Shown one piece after another: positions 5,758 to 24,208 of a stretch of DNA of 34,338 bases. Position 1 is the stretch's first letter. Each line of letters starts with the position of its first letter. Made by a program: the position numbers and the translations under genes. Source of the DNA: Candidatus Sungiibacteriota bacterium (GTDB lineage Bacteria > Patescibacteriota > Minisyncoccia > Sungbacterales > JACQCQ01); the NCBI GenBank assembly GCA_016181565.1, contig JACOZA010000081.1, positions 1 to 34,338 of the forward strand. The letters are read 5' to 3'. The notes under the pieces were generated by a model, which did no database searches, was not told the DNA's origin, and worked only from the letters and a program-made list of their open reading frames with translations.

Positions 5758-7110
5758 ATGTCAACTCACGCGTCGAAGATTTCCATGGAAAAAATTGTTT
5801 CTCTTGCCAAACGGCGGGGATTTATTTTCCCCGGCTCTGAAATTTACGGGGGGCTCTCGGGAACTTGGGATTACGGCCCCCTGGGAGTTGAACTTAAGAA
5901 TAATATCAAGCGCGAATTTTGGCGGACTCTAGTTTATCAAAGGGATGATACAGTCGGCCTCGATGCCGCGGTCTTGATGAACCCCAGAGTCTGGGAAGCG
6001 TCCGGACATACTGAAGCGTTTGCGGATCCATTGATTGAATGCAAAGTTTGCCATGAGAGAATTCGGGCCGACAACCAAGAGGATAAAGAGAGTCATGAAA
6101 AAACGCACAGGACTAGGAAAGAAACGCCGGCTTGGACGGAGCCGCGCCAGTTCAACCTGCTGATGGCAGCGGAGCTAGGATCGGTGGAGGGGAAGAAATC
6201 TTCGGTGTATCTTCGCGGTGAAATTACGCAAGGGGTGCACGTGAATTTCAAAAATGTTCTCGATGCGGCATGGATGAAAATACCCTTCGGCATTGTCCAA
6301 ATCGGGAAAGCCTTCCGCAATGAAATTACTCCGGGGAATTTCACGTTCCGTTCGCGAGAGTTTGAACAAATGGAGCTGCAGTATTATGTGCGGCCGCACG
6401 AGGCAGAATCAATGAGGTGGTTTCTTTACTGGAAAGAGGAGCGGATGGCATGGTACAAGAGGCTCGGCATTCGGGGAGCCAATCTACGGTTTCGTGAGCA
6501 CGCTCCAGACGAGCGGGCGCATTACGCGCGCGCGGCTTGGGATATCGAGTACAATTCGCCCTTTGGGGGATGGAAAGAATGTGAGGGGATACACCACCGC
6601 GGCGAGTGGGATTTGTCGCGCCACAAAGAATTCAGTGGAGTAGACCTTTCTTATTTTGACGAAGAGGCTAAAGAGCGTTTTATCCCTTGGGTGATTGAAA
6701 CGTCCGGCGGCGTTGATCGGGCCCTCCTCTTTTTCCTGATAGATGCCTACCGCGAAGAACCCGACAAAGACGGAGTTCGTACGCTGCTTAAAATTCATCC
6801 CCAGCTGGCGCCCTATAAAGTGGCTGTTTTCCCGCTACTCGCCAATAAACCCGACTTAGTTGACCGAGCGCGAAAAATCTATACGATATTGAAGTCATCG
6901 TTGGTCGCCGCTTGGGACGATATCGGCAATATCGGCAAGCGCTACCGCCGGCAGGATGAAATCGGCACGCCCTTTTGTATCACCGTGGATTTTGAGACGC
7001 TGGAAGACGGAACGGTAACCGTCCGCGATCGCGATACCATGCGGCAGGAGCGGGTGAATGAAAAAGAGTTAATAGAGCATCTGTCGGATAAAATCAAAAC
7101 TGGTTCTTAG
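5758..7110 (+). CDS. glyQS: Glycyl-tRNA synthetase, class II dimeric type
   Basis: IVSLAKRRGFIFPGSEIYGGLSGTWDYGPLG N-terminus; FRNEITPGNFTFRSREFEQMELQYYV; GIHHRGEWDLSRH; C-terminal anticodon-binding block (VAVFPL...RYRRQDEIGTPFCITVD). An alternative start is ATG 5785 (MEKIV...). Confidence 0.93.
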   Translation: MSTHASKISMEKIVSLAKRRGFIFPGSEIYGGLSGTWDYGPLGVELKNNIKREFWRTLVYQRDDTVGLDAAVLMNPRVWEASGHTEAFADPLIECKVCHERIRADNQEDKESHEKTHRTRKETPAWTEPRQFNLLMAAELGSVEGKKSSVYLRGEITQGVHVNFKNVLDAAWMKIPFGIVQIGKAFRNEITPGNFTFRSREFEQMELQYYVRPHEAESMRWFLYWKEERMAWYKRLGIRGANLRFREHAPDERAHYARAAWDIEYNSPFGGWKECEGIHHRGEWDLSRHKEFSGVDLSYFDEEAKERFIPWVIETSGGVDRALLFFLIDAYREEPDKDGVRTLLKIHPQLAPYKVAVFPLLANKPDLVDRARKIYTILKSSLVAAWDDIGNIGKRYRRQDEIGTPFCITVDFETLEDGTVTVRDRDTMRQERVNEKELIEHLSDKIKTGS

Positions 7111-12226: not shown

Positions 12227-12247
12227 AACTTTTTCGTCAGCTATTTC

Positions 12248-12277
12248 TTGACGTTAACTTAAACTTAACGATAGAGT
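12248..12277 (+). promoter_or_regulatory. Candidate sigma70-type promoter upstream of the RT gene
   Basis: TTGACG (12248-12253), 18-nt spacer, TAGAGT (12272-12277). Hexamer match only. Confidence 0.35.
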
Positions 12278-12400
12278 GTAGGCGCAGGTTAGCAGACGCA
12301 GCGTCCTTTCCAAGGAATGCCTCCGCAGATTGCTGCGGGGGACTGTTGATGCTGGCGGCTAGTCGGTCTGGAGGAAGATAAAGTTCAATGGTTTGAAAGC

Positions 12401-13504
12401 GTGTTGCAGCAGCGGCTCTCCGATCCTTACTGCTATCGAGCGAAGCAAATCCCAAAGCGGCTTGGAGGATTGAGGACGATTGATGTCCCATGCCCTCGTC
12501 TGAAAAAACTCCAGCGTCGGATCCATGATTTTCTCCTTCGGCGCCACTACCGTCCCTCAAGAATCTGTCATTCTTTCGTTGGCAAGTTCTATGATGTTGC
12601 GCGCCCCGCGAGAAAGCGCTGGATTCCCGGTCGTTCACTTTTCACAAATGCGTGGGTGCATCTTGGTGTCCCGCCTGGAGTCTCGCCGCGGAGCAAATCA
12701 CGGAGGATTCACTGGCGCATCCCGCGTTCGCTCTTCAGTGTTGACCTTAAAGACGCCTATCCTTCCATCGGCGTTGATCATGTCTTCCGTATCTACCAGG
12801 AGCTGACAGGAGATCCCTGGACGGCGCAGATCCTTTCAACCCTATCTACTTGGAACGGCAGTTTGCCGCAGGGAGCCCCGACCTCGCCGCTCCTTCTCAA
12901 CTTCGCCTGCCGTGAACTGGACGGGGCGCTGGCACATGAGTTTACGCGCGGACCCTATCGCCTGACGCGCTATGTCGATGATTTCGTGCTGACGTCTACA
13001 GATCCCGAGATCAGCGAAGCGACGCGAGAGCGGTTCGTCGCTATCATTGAGCAGCACGGTTTCAAGATAAATCAGGCGAAGACATGTTACTGGCGTGATA
13101 CAGATCGCGCGCTCCGCGTAACGGGCATCAATCTCTTTCCGCAGGAGCGACACATTGGACTTCCCAACGTCGTCCAGAGGCAATTCCGCGCCGCGCTCTA
13201 CTACGCGCTAAAGTCGCTTGAGTCTATTCACGCCTATGCTTTGCAACGCGGAGTGCTCGACGAAACAACGGCCATGTCTCTCCGCGGCGCCGAGAAACAG
13301 GCCTGGGGGCTTATCTACGGCGTCATTGGTTTTACGTATCAGGTCTACGGCGCAAAGATCCCGCGGCCAATCTACGCATGGATTCCCGAGTTGACCGCGA
13401 GGACCGGCGTCACGTCCGATACGTTGGTCGCAAAGATTAAGAAATATCCTCCCATTGCCGCGATCCAGCAGATCGGCGAGGAGATCATCGGAAGTTCCCC
13501 ATAG
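12401..13504 (+). CDS. Reverse transcriptase, retron-type (RT domain only)
   Basis: RT blocks occur in order: IPKRLGGLRTIDVP, SLFTNAWVH (NAxxH), SVDLKDAYPSI, LPQGAPTSPLLLNF, RYVDDFVLT (YxDD), GFKINQAKT, ALRVTGINLF (VTG). The frame contains no ATG before the motifs. The first in-frame start is GTG 12401 (TTG 12404 follows), so the start is uncertain. Confidence 0.85.
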   Translation: MLQQRLSDPYCYRAKQIPKRLGGLRTIDVPCPRLKKLQRRIHDFLLRRHYRPSRICHSFVGKFYDVARPARKRWIPGRSLFTNAWVHLGVPPGVSPRSKSRRIHWRIPRSLFSVDLKDAYPSIGVDHVFRIYQELTGDPWTAQILSTLSTWNGSLPQGAPTSPLLLNFACRELDGALAHEFTRGPYRLTRYVDDFVLTSTDPEISEATRERFVAIIEQHGFKINQAKTCYWRDTDRALRVTGINLFPQERHIGLPNVVQRQFRAALYYALKSLESIHAYALQRGVLDETTAMSLRGAEKQAWGLIYGVIGFTYQVYGAKIPRPIYAWIPELTARTGVTSDTLVAKIKKYPPIAAIQQIGEEIIGSSP

Positions 13505-13545
13505 CGCCCCCGTTCGGTTTATCCGAATCGGGGCGTTATCTTTTG
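13505..13545 (+). terminator. Intrinsic terminator after the RT gene
   Basis: The CGCCCCCGTTCGG / CCGAATCGGGGCG stem has 11 WC pairs, 1 GU and 1 mismatch, with loop TTTAT. It is followed by TTATCTTTTG and starts 1 nt after the RT stop codon. Confidence 0.7.
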
Positions 13546-13546
13546 C

Positions 13547-13575
13547 TTGAAGAGTGGGATTTTGGCTTGTATAGT
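13547..13575 (+). promoter_or_regulatory. Candidate sigma70-type promoter for the leuS leader
   Basis: TTGAAG (13547-13552), 17-nt spacer, TATAGT (13570-13575). The -10 ends 8 nt before ATG 13584. Confidence 0.5.
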
Positions 13576-13580
13576 GAGTT

Positions 13581-13727
13581 GGTATGCCCGGTAGTGAAAA
13601 CCCGATTGGCATCTTTCCGGATGCCAGTGGGGCCTCACCTTGGCTTCTTTGTTAGTCTGTTTGTGTCATAGTTTATGATAAGGACAATTTATATACTTAT
13701 GTATCCAGTTTCTACTACCGGGTATGC
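13581..13727. repeat. ~134-bp segment bounded by 9-nt terminal inverted repeats and a 7-nt direct duplication (MITE-like footprint or structured leader)
   Basis: GGTATGC occurs at 13581-13587 and again at 13721-13727. CCCGGTAGT (13587-13595) is the exact reverse complement of ACTACCGGG (13714-13722). An internal hairpin pairs TGGCATC and GATGCCA (13607-13626). Confidence 0.6.
13584..13655 (+). CDS. Possible 23-codon upstream ORF in the leuS leader (MPGSENPIGIFPDASGASPWLLC)
   Basis: Its ATG sits in the same GGTATGC context as the leuS ATG, 8 nt after a -10 box. It ends with CTT CTT TGT TAG. There is no homology evidence. Confidence 0.2.
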   Translation: MPGSENPIGIFPDASGASPWLLC

Positions 13728-16669
13728 GCTATAACCCGAAAGCTATCGAGGCGAAATGGCAGAAGCGCTGGCTCGAGACCAAGACTTACGAGCCGAAATT
13801 GAAGTCCGCTAAAAAGCCGGTTCGACAAGCTCACGCCAAACCTTTCTATAACTTAATGATGTTTCCCTATCCGTCAGCCGAAGGTCTGCATGTGGGGAAC
13901 GTTTATGCTTTCACCGGGTCGGATATTTACGGCCGGTTTCAGCGCATGCGGGGAAATGACGTCTTCGAGCCCATCGGGCTTGACGGCTTCGGCATCCACT
14001 CGGAAAACTATGCATTAAAAATCGGCAAACATCCTGCCAAACAAGCCAAAGTTTCCGAGAAGAATTTCTATCGCCAATTATCCCAAATCGGGAACGGCTT
14101 TGCCTGGCGCGAACACTTGGAGACATATGACCCCGATTACTACAAATGGACTCAATGGATTTTTGTCCAGATGTTTAAAAAGGGTCTCGCCTATCGCAAA
14201 AAAGCCAAAGTGAATTGGTGTCCCTCGTGCCTCACCGTGCTCGCCGATGAGCAAGTTATCCAAGGACGGTGCGAGCGTTGCGAGACAGAAGTGGTAAAGC
14301 GCGACCTGGAGCAATGGTTTTTCAAAATTACCGATTATGCGGAGCGGCTGCTCGAGAATTTAAAAACCATCGATTGGTCGCCAAAGGTGAAAATTGCCCA
14401 GGCGGCTTGGATCGGAAAATCGGAGGGAGCGGAGCTGGAGTTCCCAGTAGTGACAAGTGACAAGAGACAAGAGACAAGTATCAAGGTGTTTACCACGCGG
14501 CCCGATACTTTGTTCGGCGCGACCTATATGGTGCTGGCACCCGAGCACCCGTTAATTGAAAATTTAAAATTAAAAATTAAAAATTGGGAAGAGGTTGAGG
14601 ACTATATAAAAAAATCCGCAAAAAAGTCGGAAATTGAGAGGACGGCCGAAACCAAAGAAAAGACCGGAGTGGAGTTGGAGGGCGTTAAAGCCGTTAACCC
14701 CGCAAACCAAGAAGAAATCCCAGTTTTTATTGCCGATTACGTTCTCGCGAGCTACGGCACGGGAGCTATTATGGCCGTCCCGGCGCACGACCAGCGGGAT
14801 TTCGCATTCGCACAAAAATTTAATCTCTCTGTTTGGCGAGTAATTAGAAAGAAGGAAGCTCCAATTAAAAGTTATTTGATGGGTGCCAAGGACGTCTCTG
14901 ATAAAGAATTAGCGACTTTAGGCATATCGATTATCAAAAAAACATCAGATGGAGATCGGAAAATTATTGTTCCCAAAACAAAACTTTCTGAGTATGAAAA
15001 TTTAGTTTCAAAAAAAATGACTCCTGGTTTCTGGAATGAGTACATAGGAGAAGAAGCAGTCTTTATCTTCAAACATAAAGACGGGAGCCTTGAAAGGCTC
15101 ACCTTAACTCCGGAAACTGAAAAACGTATCGATAAACTCGCAGCGGATTTTGTCGGCGAAGGCTGGAGTAAGTCTAGCGTCTGGAAATGGCTTGCGGAAA
15201 ATGATTGGTATGCGGATCTAATTATTCATACTGATCCAGGATTTCTCGAGAATTCTGGAAAATTTGACGGTCTGGAATCAGAAGAAGCCAAATGGGAGAT
15301 CACGAAATTTGTCGGGGGTGAGAAAAAGACCCAGTATCGACTCCGTGACTGGCTCATCTCCCGTCAGCGCTACTGGGGCCCGCCCATACCGCTTGTTTTC
15401 TGCGAAAACTGCGCGGATAAGGTTAGGAATCAGGAATCCCGCCTTCGCCGAAGCTTCGGCGGGCAGGCAGGAATCAGGAATATATTTAATAAAGGTGAAT
15501 TGGAGAATCCGGGGTGGATTGCCGTGCCGGAAAAAGATTTGCCCGTGAAGTTGCCGTTTGTCAAAAATTTTCGGCCGACGGGGACTGGGCAGTCGCCGCT
15601 CGCCTCCGTCAAATCTTTTTACGAGACAAAGTGTCCCAAGTGCGGCAAGACTGCCCGGCGCGAGACGGACGTATCAGACACTTTTCTTGATTCGGCGTGG
15701 TACTACCTCCGCTACCCTAGCATCGGAATGAAAAATTCAAAAATAAAAATTAAAAATGACAACGGAAAATATAAAATTGTAGAAATTCCCTGGAGTAGCG
15801 AAGTTACAAAAAAATGGTTGCCCGTCGAGATGTATATCGGCGGCGCGGAGCATTCGGTATTGCACCTTCTCTATTCACGGTTTCTTACCATGGTCTTTCA
15901 CGATTGGGGGCTGTTGGATTTTGGAGAGCCGTTTACCACATTTCGGGCGCACGGCCTCGTCATCAAAGACGGCGCCAAAATGTCAAAATCCAAAGGCAAT
16001 ATCGTGAATCCCGATGACTACATCAAGGCCTATGGCGCCGATGCTCTGCGGCTCTATCTCATGTTCATGGGACCGTTTCAGGACGGCGGCGATTTTCGCG
16101 ATTCCGGCATTGCCGGTCTCACGCGCTTTTTAAACCGTGTCTGGAAATTCTTTTCAGAAAAGTCAAAAGTTAAAAATCAAAAGTTAAAAATTCAAGCCGA
16201 AAGTCAAAATTTGGAGCGGATACTGCACCGCACCGTCAAAAAAGTCACCGCGGATATTGAAAGCTTGCGCTATAACACGGCCATTTCGTCTCTGATGATG
16301 CTCTTGAATGAATTTGAAGCCGCACCCGACGCAGTTTCACTGGAGGGGCAAAAGATATTTCTTAAGCTCTTAGCTCCCTTCGCGCCGCATATGACGGAAG
16401 AGCTGTGGTCTCACTTAAAAGAGAAAGGATCAATCCATAAATCCGCGTGGCCGGTTTTTGATCCGAGGCTGATTCGAGAAGAGACATTTGAACTCGTGGT
16501 GCAGGTAAACGGTAAAATGCGCGGTAAGATTCTCCTGCCGCAGGGAGTTTCTCAAGCCGATGCAGAAAAAGCGGCCAAGACCGATCCGCGATTGCGATCA
16601 ATGCTCGGCGGGATCGCAACGAGGAAAGTCATCTTCGTTCCCGGTCGGTTGATCAACTTTGTCATATGA
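13724..16669 (+). CDS. leuS: Leucyl-tRNA synthetase with several lineage-specific insertions
   Basis: FPYPSAEGLHVGNVY (HIGH-type), TTRPDTLFGATYMVLAPEHP, HDQRDFAFAQKF, YRLRDWLISRQRYWGPPIP and GAKMSKSKGN (KMSKS), followed by a C-terminal domain. Confidence 0.95.
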   Translation: MRYNPKAIEAKWQKRWLETKTYEPKLKSAKKPVRQAHAKPFYNLMMFPYPSAEGLHVGNVYAFTGSDIYGRFQRMRGNDVFEPIGLDGFGIHSENYALKIGKHPAKQAKVSEKNFYRQLSQIGNGFAWREHLETYDPDYYKWTQWIFVQMFKKGLAYRKKAKVNWCPSCLTVLADEQVIQGRCERCETEVVKRDLEQWFFKITDYAERLLENLKTIDWSPKVKIAQAAWIGKSEGAELEFPVVTSDKRQETSIKVFTTRPDTLFGATYMVLAPEHPLIENLKLKIKNWEEVEDYIKKSAKKSEIERTAETKEKTGVELEGVKAVNPANQEEIPVFIADYVLASYGTGAIMAVPAHDQRDFAFAQKFNLSVWRVIRKKEAPIKSYLMGAKDVSDKELATLGISIIKKTSDGDRKIIVPKTKLSEYENLVSKKMTPGFWNEYIGEEAVFIFKHKDGSLERLTLTPETEKRIDKLAADFVGEGWSKSSVWKWLAENDWYADLIIHTDPGFLENSGKFDGLESEEAKWEITKFVGGEKKTQYRLRDWLISRQRYWGPPIPLVFCENCADKVRNQESRLRRSFGGQAGIRNIFNKGELENPGWIAVPEKDLPVKLPFVKNFRPTGTGQSPLASVKSFYETKCPKCGKTARRETDVSDTFLDSAWYYLRYPSIGMKNSKIKIKNDNGKYKIVEIPWSSEVTKKWLPVEMYIGGAEHSVLHLLYSRFLTMVFHDWGLLDFGEPFTTFRAHGLVIKDGAKMSKSKGNIVNPDDYIKAYGADALRLYLMFMGPFQDGGDFRDSGIAGLTRFLNRVWKFFSEKSKVKNQKLKIQAESQNLERILHRTVKKVTADIESLRYNTAISSLMMLLNEFEAAPDAVSLEGQKIFLKLLAPFAPHMTEELWSHLKEKGSIHKSAWPVFDPRLIREETFELVVQVNGKMRGKILLPQGVSQADAEKAAKTDPRLRSMLGGIATRKVIFVPGRLINFVI
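14447..14488. repeat. In-frame heptamer array (6 units, 42 nt) in leuS
   Basis: GTAGTGA CAAGTGA CAAGAGA CAAGAGA CAAGTAT CAAGGTG. It encodes VVTSDKRQETSIKV just before the conserved TTRPDT motif. Confidence 0.85.
14552..14586. repeat. In-frame A/T-rich heptamer array (5 units) in leuS
   Basis: TTAATTG AAAATTT AAAATTA AAAATTA AAAATTG, encoding LIENLKLKIKNW. Confidence 0.85.
15424..15481. repeat. Composite element in leuS: heptamer pair, 16-bp perfect palindrome, heptamer pair
   Basis: TAGGAAT CAGGAAT (15424-15437) and CAGGAAT CAGGAAT (15468-15481) flank CGCCGAAGCTTCGGCG (15447-15462). The element encodes RNQESRLRRSFGGQAGIRNI. Confidence 0.85.
15730..15778. repeat. In-frame A-rich heptamer array (7 units) in leuS
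   Basis: GAAAAAT TCAAAAA TAAAAAT TAAAAAT GACAACG GAAAATA TAAAATT, encoding MKNSKIKIKNDNGKYKI. Confidence 0.8.
16157..16212. repeat. In-frame A-rich heptamer array (8 units) in leuS
   Basis: GAAAAGT CAAAAGT TAAAAAT CAAAAGT TAAAAAT TCAAGCC GAAAGTC AAAATTT, encoding EKSKVKNQKLKIQAESQNL. Confidence 0.8.
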
Positions 16670-17313
16670 ATGTCATTCAGTTGAATGAAAAAACACACCA
16701 CGGCGTACTTTTTGAAGCCGTACGCGTGGTGAAAGCTGGCGGCGTTATTTGTTATCCCACGGATACGATCTACGGCCTCGGCGGGAATGCGCTTGAGGCA
16801 GGAGTCGCGCGGCGTATCAGGCGCATCAAAAAGCGCCCCGAAGAAAAAGGCATGATTATTTTGGTAAGAGATGTGACCATGGCGCGAATGTATGCTTATA
16901 TTGATCTCTGGACCGAAACACTCCTCGGAGATCTCTGGCCCGGGCCGATCACTGTGGTACTCCAGAAAAAAGACACGATGCCGGATATTGTCTCCGGCGG
17001 CAAGGAAACCATCGCGCTTCGCATGCCCCATTTCTTATTTGTGAACGAGCTTGCCAAGCAAATTGACTTTCCCCTGATTGCCACCTCCGCTAACGTCTCG
17101 GGAGACTCTAACCAGCCGCGCACACTCGCGTCATTTTTAGCGGCGATGCGGTCCGCCCGGTACAAACCCGATTTGGCGATTGATGCGGGAGAACTGCCCA
17201 ATCATGAGCCCTCGACAGTCCTCGATCTCACCAATCGCAAGAACCCGGTGATTCTGCGCCACGGCGTACTGTCAAAGTCAGACCTTGACCAGATGCTCGC
17301 CAAACATTTATGA
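16666..17313 (+). CDS. tsaC: L-threonylcarbamoyladenylate synthase (YrdC/Sua5-domain, TsaC type)
   Basis: VICYPTDTIYGLGGNA, IATSANVSG and PSTVLDL motifs. Length 215 aa with an ATGA overlap with the leuS stop. Confidence 0.85.
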   Translation: MNVIQLNEKTHHGVLFEAVRVVKAGGVICYPTDTIYGLGGNALEAGVARRIRRIKKRPEEKGMIILVRDVTMARMYAYIDLWTETLLGDLWPGPITVVLQKKDTMPDIVSGGKETIALRMPHFLFVNELAKQIDFPLIATSANVSGDSNQPRTLASFLAAMRSARYKPDLAIDAGELPNHEPSTVLDLTNRKNPVILRHGVLSKSDLDQMLAKHL

Positions 17314-17382
17314 GGGAGAGTATTTCAAAAAGATTCCAGATGCTCGCCAAACATTTATGAGGGAGAGTATTTCAAAAAGATT
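17289..17382. repeat. Exact 47-bp tandem duplication spanning the tsaC stop / glyA start junction
   Basis: CCAGATGCTCGCCAAACATTTATGAGGGAGAGTATTTCAAAAAGATT occurs at 17289-17335 and identically at 17336-17382. Confidence 0.95.
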
Positions 17383-18631
17383 GAAGAAAGCTGATCCGGC
17401 GGTTGCGAATATACTGGCACAAGAGATTTTGCGCCAAGAAGAAACGCTGGACCTCATCGCATCTGAAAATATTGCCTCTCCCGAAGTTCGTGAACTGGTT
17501 GGGTCGGTACTCGCGAACAAATATTCCGAAGGCTATCCCGGCCGGAGGTATTATCCGGGGAATGTGAATGTAGATGCGATTGAAACTTTGGCGCAAAATC
17601 GAGCACGCAAGGCATTTCATCTGAATCAGGCATGGCATGTGAATGTGCAGTCCTATTCCGGTTCTCCCGCTAACATCGCGGTCTTCCTTGGTTTGATGAA
17701 ACCGGGCGAGAAGCTGATGGGGATGGCCTTAGCCTCCGGCGGGCATCTGACGCACGGGCACAAAGTCAGCGCTTCGGGCATTTTGTTTCGCAGTGTCGCC
17801 TACGGCGTGGATCAGAAGACCGGTCTGATTGACTACAATGAAGTCGAGCGGATTGCCCAAAAAGAAAAACCGCGCTTGATTGTCTCGGGCCTGACCGCTT
17901 ATCCGCGTGCCATTGATTTTAAGAAGTTTGGCGCTATTGCCAAAAAAGTTGGCGCCTATCATGTGGCGGATATATCACATATTGCTGGGTTGATTGCGGC
18001 AGGGCTCCATCCATCGCCGTTTCCTTATGCCGATGTGGTGACAACCACGACGCACAAAATTCTGCGCGGGCCGCGTGGGGCAGTAATATTTACTAAGCAA
18101 CAAGCAATAAGCAATAAGCGACACGGAGCAAACATTTCCGACAAAATTGACCGGGCAGTTTTCCCCGGTCTTCAGGGCGGGCCGCATGATAATGTGACGG
18201 CGGCGATTGCCTACACCTTTGGTCGAGTTGCAACCCCAGCGTACAAAAAATACGCACGGTTGGTGCTGGAAAACGCCAAAGCCCTAGCTCAAGTTTTAAT
18301 TGAAGAGGGGTTTACGTTGGTGACCGGAGGAACGGCAAACCATATGATGCTTCTCGACTTGCGGCCGCTCGGCCTTAATGGGTTTGAGGCGGAAAAGCTT
18401 CTCGAGCGCACCGGAATTATTGCTAACCGTAACAGTATTCCGGGCGATGCTTCACCATTTCGCCCCTCGGGCATTCGCCTTGGTACGCCTGCCATCACGA
18501 CGCGGGGGTTGCGGCCGCGTCATATGCCGCAAATCGCCCAATGGTTTTCGCGCGTTTTGATCGGCGGCGAAAATCCGGAAAAAGTCGGCCGTGAAGTGAA
18601 AAAGTTTTTGACCAAATTACCTGTTAATTAA
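17357..18631 (+). CDS. glyA: Serine hydroxymethyltransferase
   Basis: LDLIASENIASPEV, NKYSEGYPGRRYY and TTTTHKILRGPRG (PLP lysine). Start chosen at ATG 17357 (MRESISKRLKKADP). The track ORF start at 17285 lies in the duplicated junction. Confidence 0.93.
   Translation: MRESISKRLKKADPAVANILAQEILRQEETLDLIASENIASPEVRELVGSVLANKYSEGYPGRRYYPGNVNVDAIETLAQNRARKAFHLNQAWHVNVQSYSGSPANIAVFLGLMKPGEKLMGMALASGGHLTHGHKVSASGILFRSVAYGVDQKTGLIDYNEVERIAQKEKPRLIVSGLTAYPRAIDFKKFGAIAKKVGAYHVADISHIAGLIAAGLHPSPFPYADVVTTTTHKILRGPRGAVIFTKQQAISNKRHGANISDKIDRAVFPGLQGGPHDNVTAAIAYTFGRVATPAYKKYARLVLENAKALAQVLIEEGFTLVTGGTANHMMLLDLRPLGLNGFEAEKLLERTGIIANRNSIPGDASPFRPSGIRLGTPAITTRGLRPRHMPQIAQWFSRVLIGGENPEKVGREVKKFLTKLPVN
18094..18121. 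repeat. In-frame heptamer array (4 units) in glyA
   Basis: TAAGCAA CAAGCAA TAAGCAA TAAGCGA, encoding KQQAISNKR in the variable loop after the PLP-lysine segment. Confidence 0.85.
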
Positions 18632-24145: not shown

Positions 24146-24208
24146 TTCCTTGCTGCTTATCTCTCGTCACTGATCTATTGTCTCTTGTTTCTTGTCTCTT
24201 GTCGCTAG
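24146..24208. repeat. Array of 9 heptamers (TCTCTTG type) filling the parB/rel convergent spacer
   Basis: TTCCTTG CTGCTTA TCTCTCG TCACTGA TCTATTG TCTCTTG TTTCTTG TCTCTTG TCGCTAG. TCTCTTG is the reverse complement of the CAAGAGA unit in leuS. The last unit contains the rel stop codon. Confidence 0.85.

Follow-up and report, generated by a model that had tools for sequence, protein, structure and literature searches.

The 34,338-nucleotide (nt) stretch analysed here (the window), a contig of a Candidatus Sungiibacteriota bacterium, carries a gene for a retron-type reverse transcriptase (RT) between tatD and leuS. Positions 12248-13545 are probably a 5'-deleted derivative of a two-part, effector-less retron-like element that is vertically inherited at the tatD-leuS junction. 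In intact relatives this element consists of a structured non-coding RNA (ncRNA) followed by the RT gene. The complementary DNA (cDNA) product of the window copy has most likely been lost. Orphan retron-like clades are already known. The main new result is the 5'-deleted copy of a rare, vertically inherited RT-ncRNA element, together with the structured RNA of that element. The ALTERNATIVES considered were a truncated RT that still functions, an artefact or minority variant, an RNA that is not of retron type, and a recent insertion with TatD as partner.

An RT-ncRNA element and its copy in the window

A long non-coding stretch precedes the RT gene in every relative, and ten loci share a common design: in most of them a promoter-like site, then the 5' arm (a1) of a terminal helix, its 3' arm (a2), a GC-rich hairpin, a Shine-Dalgarno (SD) sequence and the RT start codon. 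A TTGAC-type hexamer lies at most 45 nt before a1 in L003, L171, L008, L010, L172 and L173. The a1 sequence varies between loci (GCAGGTC, GCAGGCC, GCGAGTC, GCAGATC, ACAGGTC and others) and a2 is exactly complementary to it. The arms are 7-10 nt long and span about 215-365 nt from a1 start to a2 end. The GC-rich hairpin is terminator-like, usually with a T-run, and begins 1-6 nt after a2. The GGAGG-type SD and the start codon (ATG in nine loci, GTG in L174) are present in all ten relatives, 79-452 nt after a2, and full-length relatives encode an RT of ~400 amino acids (aa).

The terminal helix is supported by covariation. In an anchored alignment of the ten loci 69 of the 70 cells of its seven core pairs are paired, and six of these pairs change on both sides. 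The covariation score of 0.422 compares with 0.216 +/- 0.037 in shuffles, none of 500 reaching it, and with 0.07-0.15 in slid registers. The minimum free energy (MFE) structure is closed by a1/a2 in all seven elements folded. One or two variable hairpins separate a1 from a module conserved in all loci, a hairpin CCYYnnCGG-AUAU-CCGnnRRGG followed by UUGnUnAnGCUGGC, with compensatory changes in seven of its nine pairs. MAFFT alignments of full elements were unreliable at the 5' ends and in the middles; helices were tested on anchored mini-alignments instead. Neither the window nor the loci of four relatives matched Rfam 15, retron msr included. On these comparative grounds the upstream RNA is a new, well-supported structured RNA.

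The 5' part of this RNA can be recognised in the window (Table 1). A covariance model of the module (R1), built from eight relatives with the window left out, has a single match there, which coincides with the module listed in the table (35.8 bits, E 3.5e-7; next best 9.3 bits). R1 also picks up L171 and L008, two loci that had been kept out of it, and has no match in 42 distant retron loci (~690 kb). It detects the module only once in the 34-kb window; blastn-short searches with the element halves were too insensitive for this purpose, leaving even the known 5' match unrecovered, and the covariance model was used instead. No a2 partner (ACCTGC) is present on the + strand within thousands of bases.

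Alignment of the window to the L003 element ends after the first ~90 nt of the latter and resumes in RT coding sequence, so that about 470-490 nt are missing with respect to the relatives. The missing part comprises a2, about three quarters of the RNA, the terminator-like hairpin, the SD, the ATG and the N-terminal residues. It also includes the partner of the GCUGG tail (L003/L171 consensus fold) and a palindrome carried by L001, L003 and L005. BLASTP coding homology extends 15 codons upstream of the GTG at which the window frame opens. Some 43 N-terminal residues are lost, window residue 1 corresponding to about residue 44 of relative P0005 and about residue 36 of the Ec86 RT. No other family member starts as late as profile position 45, two fragments that appear to be cut excepted.

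As judged from these alignments, the window copy is a 5'-deleted derivative of the RT-ncRNA element. An earlier note on this DNA had described the RT, with all its blocks, as a single-gene unit; the ORF lacks N-terminal residues, and the 5' part of a conserved RNA element at 12284-12360 had escaped the note. The GGAGG which it took for an SD (12370-12374) lies 26 nt from the GTG and is an in-frame remnant of L-E-E codons. It had also allowed for a decayed fragment of a locus with an effector. The copy is indeed incomplete, but its losses are most of the ncRNA and the gene's 5' end, with no effector among them. Of the two segments proposed there for an ncRNA, 12227-12400 contains the 5' RNA part (12284 to ~12360), whereas 13546-13723 contains no credible a2.

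Table 1. Features of the RT element in the window, and a reading frame adjoining the RT gene in three relatives (window positions unless a locus is named)
Feature	Position	Strand	Remarks
Promoter-like site TTGACG-18 nt-TAGAGT	12248-12277	+	would start transcription a few bases before a1
a1, GCAGGTT, 5' arm of terminal helix	12284-12290	+	from alignment to L003; a2 absent from window
Small variable hairpin UCCUU-UCC-AAGGA between a1 and conserved module	12304-12316	+	MFE fold
Conserved family RNA module: 9-bp hairpin (12320-12328/12333-12341), loop AUUG, and tail UGUUGAUGCUGGCGG	12316-12358	+	
In-frame TGA closing the RT frame upstream	12347-12349	+	no ATG, GTG or TTG between the TGA and 12401
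Deletion junction	12355-12371	+	RNA homology (L171) to ~12371; RT coding homology (L003) from ~12355
Untranslated remnant of ancestral RT codons, RLVGLEEDKVQWFES	12356-12400	+	matches P0006 residues 29-43; contains the GGAGG
RT open reading frame (ORF), N-terminally truncated, retron-type	12401-13504	+	367 aa; GTG start; without recognisable SD
Intrinsic-terminator-like hairpin and T-run ending the RT transcription unit	13505-13545	+	read directly from the sequence after the stop codon
ORF of 147-149 aa between RT and leuS	L001 1976-2419, L003 7465-7914, L171 5436-5879	-	one sub-lineage only

An intact element would be read from its own promoter through the ncRNA with its a1/a2 helix, the terminator-like hairpin, the SD and start codon and the RT gene to a terminator. 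By analogy with retrons, the 5' hairpins would be the binding site of the RT in intact relatives and the 3' part of the ncRNA its template for a small cDNA, and the hairpin after a2 would set the ratio of RNA to RT message. In the window, a deletion of ~480 nt between short similar sequences has probably joined ncRNA position ~75-85 to the RT gene at about codon 29. The promoter and a leader with a1 and the conserved hairpin would remain, followed by an RT frame that could be translated only from a GTG or TTG without an SD. In the absence of a2 the closed a1/a2 RNA predicted for the family cannot form from this copy, which most likely no longer makes the family cDNA product.

Two further observations concern the relatives. 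A perfect palindrome of 33-34 nt (AACATTCTnAnATTCTGCAGAATnTnAGAATGT) lies between the terminator-like hairpin and the RT SD in L001 (~325-357), L003/L004 (~5950-5982) and L005 (~5790-5823), and is degenerate in L171. It occurs in two different genomic contexts and is therefore part of the element, in which it might act as an operator or as a hairpin of the 5' untranslated region. In L005 (Sungbacteria HY006, protein P0009), the segment 5920-6001 carries an SD and an ATG (MPDVLQY...) 76 nt upstream of the called start and out of frame with it, which suggests a frameshift or a sequencing error in the N-terminal region of P0009.

A separate clade of retron-type RTs

The window RT is publicly recorded as a 366-aa 'RNA-directed DNA polymerase' of a Candidatus Sungbacteria metagenome-assembled genome (MAG). 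Its catalytic core, NAxxH and VTG motifs and thumb are all intact, and it matches Pfam RVT_1 (1.9e-19). QGAPTSP is encoded at 12869-12889 and YVDD at 12971-12982 (residues 191-194, of which Y191, D193 and D194 are invariant across the family). The NAxxH of region X reads NAWVH (12647-12661, residues 83-87; A84 and H87 family-invariant). It was called from its family-alignment context, where P0013 and P0015, two relatives with short loops, show the canonical retron surrounding ...GRSIxxNAxxH most clearly; at this point the HMMER alignment to the Ec86 RT is interrupted by the family insertions. Region Y (RT7) reads RVTG (13118-13126, residues 239-242; T241 invariant, G242 nearly so) and its VTG falls on that of the Ec86 RT in the profile alignment. 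NAxxH and VTG are the motifs that define retron-type RTs (Mestre et al. 2020, PMC7736814).

Several structural remarks of the earlier note hold for this gene: the ORF and its four motifs, two unusually long loops, the lack of a fused domain and a terminator of its own. The loops are family-specific insertions of variable nature. P0011, P0013 and P0015 lack the first, which splits the usual GF-x-GRS motif, while the second adds ~20 residues between NAxxH and RT3. Pfam and PADLOC searches found no extra domain fused to the RT. The hairpin and T-run after the stop codon have an equivalent in all the syntenic relatives (L001, L003, L171 and L010).

The assignment to retron RTs, also made in that note, is supported at each level examined. 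The top 25 PADLOC matches are all retron RT models, led by types III-A (134 bits), II-A (130), XII (129), XIII (121) and XI (119). Among NCBIfam models retron St85 (119.7 bits), retron-TIR RT and retron Ec67 rank first, and group II (44.5 bits), Drt3a (30) and Drt2 (24.9) are lower; all the retron models nevertheless score far below their curated cut-offs. The family profile matches the Ec86 RT with an E-value of 1.9e-36. An AlphaFold2 model (pLDDT 85.6) was compared with the PDB using Foldseek. Its 15 best matches are all retron RTs (Eco2/Ec67, Ec86, Ec78/Eco7, Ec83 and Eco8), although the sequence identity of the best ones is only 18-24%. Group II, G2L4, DRT9, abortive-infection (Abi) and diversity-generating retroelement (DGR) RTs score lower. 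Sequence and fold both identify the window protein as a true retron-type RT.

None of the 13 described retron types (Mestre et al. 2020 / PADLOC) is a clear best match for the family. Its members score 115-140 bits spread over III-A, II-A, XII, XI and XIII, where true type members (P0085, P0081) exceed 350 bits, and the Ec107-like PADLOC model gives ~80-105 bits. The family is a separate and distinct retron-type clade. It is also rare. Only 14 relatives, at 42-53% identity, were found among 5.8 billion clustered proteins, and beyond these the E-values drop from 1e-75 to 1e-33 and then to 1e-17. A profile search adds one further relative. In an exhaustive HMMER search of 1.84 billion representatives clustered at 50%, ~18 sequences reach at least 335 bits, followed by scores of at most ~270 and then below 195. 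Pattern scans of genome and metagenome contigs relied on motifs generic to retron RTs (LPQGAPTSP, RYxDD...), and among the matches listed there are almost only RTs of ~30% identity. The named sources of the family are Sungbacteria and Giovannonibacteria only, with outgroups in Parcubacteria. About 80% of the RTs of candidate phyla radiation (CPR) bacteria have been reported as DGR RTs (PMC8632793).

Function and origin of the truncated copy

Several observations weigh against a 5'-deleted retron-like element that has lost its product. They concern the nature of the RNA, the state of the RT and the deletion itself. With regard to the RNA, a G two bases after a1 is present in six of 11 sequences (including the window, GCAGGTT-A-G-C) and not in L008, L005, L174, L175 and L176. 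The 3' part folds into several medium helices and offers no single long msd stem shared by the family. Moreover, a terminator-like hairpin between the ncRNA and the RT is, to our knowledge, not usual for retrons.

This lack of a conserved branching G and of an obvious long msd hairpin, and the hairpin that separates the RNA from the RT, could indicate that the family RNA is no retron msr-msd at all. It would then be a template of the DRT2 or DRT9 kind or a regulatory leader, and the window would have lost some other function. The absence of an effector, as in DRT2, and of any Rfam match is in keeping with this. We regard such an RNA as rather doubtful. The RT is closest to retron RTs both by sequence and by fold, with DRT9, Abi and group II RTs clearly lower. 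No open frame spanning the element is conserved: over its whole length, all six frames are interrupted by stops in L003, L005 and L174, which led to rejection of a stop-free ORF in the style of DRT2. An RNA that lies just before a retron-type RT gene, on its strand, and is closed by inverted repeats at its ends is the hallmark of retron msr-msd (PMC7736814). By this analogy the RNA may be the msr-msd template of the RT. The two readings overlap, since they differ on the chemistry of the family and not on the deletion.

With regard to the RT, the truncated protein has no private substitution at the 46 sites invariant in the other members (0-5 in the others) and five at the 75 nearly invariant sites (2-11 in the others). 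The deletion is probably recent because the remaining ORF is undecayed. The intact ORF also fits continued selection on a truncated, working RT, which might use another template (its own leader, an RNA acting in trans, or none specific) in a non-defence or otherwise altered role. All catalytic and retron motifs are in place, and immediately upstream the copy still has the promoter, a1 and the conserved hairpin, which is likely to bind the RT. The N-terminal helices differ among the solved retron RTs, that of RT-Eco1 being absent from RT-Eco7, and are dispensable in some of them (PMC12673091); their loss therefore need not abolish polymerase activity. The aromatic residue F46 of the fingers is important in Eco2 (PMC12405507), and its equivalent in the family is probably the invariant Tyr12, which the window RT has kept. 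A functional truncated RT is nonetheless unlikely. The SD and ATG present in all ten relatives are gone, no a2 and no second RNA module are found in the 34-kb window, and the short form occurs in no other family member. The lack of decay is equally expected after a recent deletion.

With regard to the deletion, the short form is seen in one contig and one member sequence, both from a MAG. It could be an artefact of assembly or binning, or a minority variant, in a genome that really carries the full ncRNA and a full-length RT. Apart from the single contig and the one entry in the protein collection, this reading can point to a perfect tandem duplication of 47 bp elsewhere in the window (17289-17382), which could be an assembly oddity as well. 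This explanation is very unlikely. The similarity at the junction amounts to a few bases, too little to collapse an assembly, and the flanks are colinear with the relatives on both sides. The junction preserves neither the start of the frame nor the RNA structure, as expected of a real illegitimate deletion. Finally, an a1 complement at 13648-13660 (13 pairs, five of them G-U) would place an a2 downstream of the RT; one in 200 shuffles reaches it. It was set aside as a chance match: it is rich in wobble pairs, it lies in a non-conserved spacer and no relative has an a2 after the RT.

Inheritance, neighbouring genes and related systems

The deleted copy lies in a syntenic block (M16 peptidase, AI-2E, DUF2238, MetG, TatD, [RT], LeuS, Sua5, SHMT) common to the window, L003/L004, L171, L010 and L001; in four other, diverged genomes the RT lies likewise between tatD and leuS. 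Compared with the window, identity is 45-53% for the RT, 63-77% for MetG, 66-71% for TatD, 70% for full-length LeuS, 73% for SHMT and 58% for Sua5. L171 is closest to the window for MetG and TatD, and L010 is the most distant for RT, MetG and TatD alike. For the RT, the L171/L001/L003 group stands at 52-53% and L010 at 45%. The RT has thus diverged broadly in step with its neighbours. A second syntenic pair, L008/L174, of which only L008 is named by its source, has a Giovannonibacteria-type context. Its common flanks are an upstream gene of 240/267 aa (37% identical) and AhpC downstream. The element is an old, vertically inherited resident of the tatD-leuS junction in the Sungbacteria lineage, and vertical inheritance holds for two lineages, that of the Sungbacteria block and that with the Giovannonibacteria-type context.

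The earlier note had proposed a recent insertion of a minimal one-gene retron, possibly with TatD as its effector. The RT is indeed richer in G+C than neighbouring genes (0.563 vs 0.475-0.529) and has its own promoter-like site and terminator. However, the RT also exceeds its flanks by 5-10 G+C points in L003, L010 and L001. The excess is found in every orthologue and is therefore a family trait, not a sign of recent insertion. Comparison of the tatD-leuS junctions, with synteny and graded identities across diverged genomes, refutes a recent insertion. A viral origin was likewise rejected, P0006-specific patterns having retrieved no relative from the viral contigs of IMG/VR.

A partnership with TatD finds no support. 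The nuclease matches the PADLOC QatD model at 68.8 bits, but this reflects general TatD-family similarity. TatD adjoins the RT only in the Sungbacteria block and is not adjacent in L005, L008/L174, L172, L173 and L175. In the window it is coupled to metG, the 4-nt overlap of the two genes agreeing with the coupling that the note had described. Taken as a whole, a recently inserted retron with TatD as partner is hardly credible.

No other partner emerged, in line with the lack of a recognisable effector reported before. Across contexts the neighbours of the RT are all housekeeping genes (TatD, LeuS, UvrA, RmuC, L21, NusA, AhpC and a class-V aminotransferase). No effector is conserved next to the RT in any genomic context seen, and Pfam and PADLOC searches reveal no effector-like neighbour of the window RT. 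The family is an 'orphan', effector-less retron-like unit. The stability of the housekeeping contexts speaks against a typical mobile defence island, and is compatible with a partner that acts in trans. Small reverse-strand ORFs follow the RT in some relatives, of 147/149 aa in L001/L003/L171 (Table 1) and of 126 aa in L005. They were rejected as hidden effectors: they are non-homologous across contexts, belong to no Pfam or PADLOC family and have left no remnant in the window. The 147-149-aa ORF shows 61% identity between L001 and L003, and neither the window nor L010 has it.

The usual picture of retrons is that of mobile abortive-infection systems in three parts. The structurally characterised tripartite retrons Ec86/Eco1 (II-A), Ec67/Eco2 (I-C), Ec78/Eco7 and Ec83 (I-A) and Eco8 (I-B) provide the best structural and profile matches of the window RT, which shares with them the right-hand fold with thumb, the aligned VTG and YxDD and the RT1 beta-hairpin. 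In contrast to these, the family has neither effector nor fused domain, bears two insertions of its own and reaches the low identities given above. It resembles DRT2 (UG2) in its structured ncRNA of a few hundred nt upstream of the RT and in the absence of a protein effector. It differs from DRT2 in its retron-class RT (the 24.9 bits of the NCBIfam Drt2 model compare with a cut-off of 390), in the lack of a conserved stop-free frame across the RNA and in the retron-like terminal helix.

The closest parallel is with orphan retrons, retron RT clades without an associated protein such as the Retron-Eco5/Ec107 branch, whose function was left open (Mestre et al. 2020, PMC7736814). Common to both are an RT with NAxxH and VTG, an upstream ncRNA on the same strand closed by terminal inverted repeats, the lack of a conserved effector and a chromosomal location outside prophages. 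The present family differs in its RT, a separate clade by its low scores against both the PADLOC retron-type models and the Ec107-like one. It also differs in an ncRNA that is longer, multi-branched and followed by a terminator-like hairpin, and in its parcubacterial (CPR) hosts with vertical inheritance at housekeeping loci. The window copy differs further by the loss of a2 and of the 3' three quarters of the RNA.

Why some retron RT clades lack an effector is a question raised by Mestre et al. 2020 (PMC7736814). The clade offers a clean natural case of it, combining a retron-class RT and a new covarying RNA, without effector, at housekeeping loci of very small genomes. Whether the effector acts in trans or the function is a different one could be approached with a ~1.7 kb construct from an intact relative. 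The window would serve as a natural deletion mutant, with the 5' RNA hairpins and an N-terminally shortened RT. A more far-reaching idea, in our view distinctly improbable, is that the intact family is a domesticated effector-free retron with a cellular role other than abortive infection. The window RT would then have outlived the loss of its template and would have a template-independent or trans-templated function. For annotation, the lesson is that the gene here is a truncated copy, for which the signatures of a ribosome-binding site and of a recent insertion are misleading.

The window contains arrays of tandem heptamers at 14449-14479, 14554-14585, 15727-15757 and 16158-16191 (leuS), 18095-18123 (glyA) and 24156-24203. 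Each has 4-5 units (6.9 in one case) over ~31-35 nt and lies inside a housekeeping coding sequence. Similar arrays occur in the orthologous loci L001 (3188-5115, five in leuS), L003 (343 and 5156), L171 (3243), L010 (5135 and 8308) and L005 (8293), with tatD among the genes concerned in L003, L171 and L010. The first two leuS arrays start at offsets 725 and 830 from the leuS start in the window and 691 and 794 in L001, and share their unit (AATTAAA) in one case but not in the other. Their density in family loci (17 per 106 kb) is about sixfold that found elsewhere (41 per 1.59 Mb). The RT loci with the Giovannonibacteria-type context have none, and unrelated phyla have similar arrays. The distribution of the arrays follows the Sungbacteria host lineage rather than the RT, so that a link between the two, for which the note had seen no evidence, was rejected on testing.

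Two features lie further downstream. The RT-leuS spacer (13547-13723) contains a promoter-like TTGAAG-17-TATAGT followed by a ~145-nt leader with a strong fold (-54 kcal/mol) ahead of leuS. The spacer matches nothing in Rfam and is poorly conserved relative to its counterparts in L010, L001 and L003. The 47-bp duplication mentioned above (2.0 copies, 100% identical) may be real or due to faulty assembly. It takes in the stop of Sua5/YrdC and the start of glyA, which leaves glyA with two candidate start sites.

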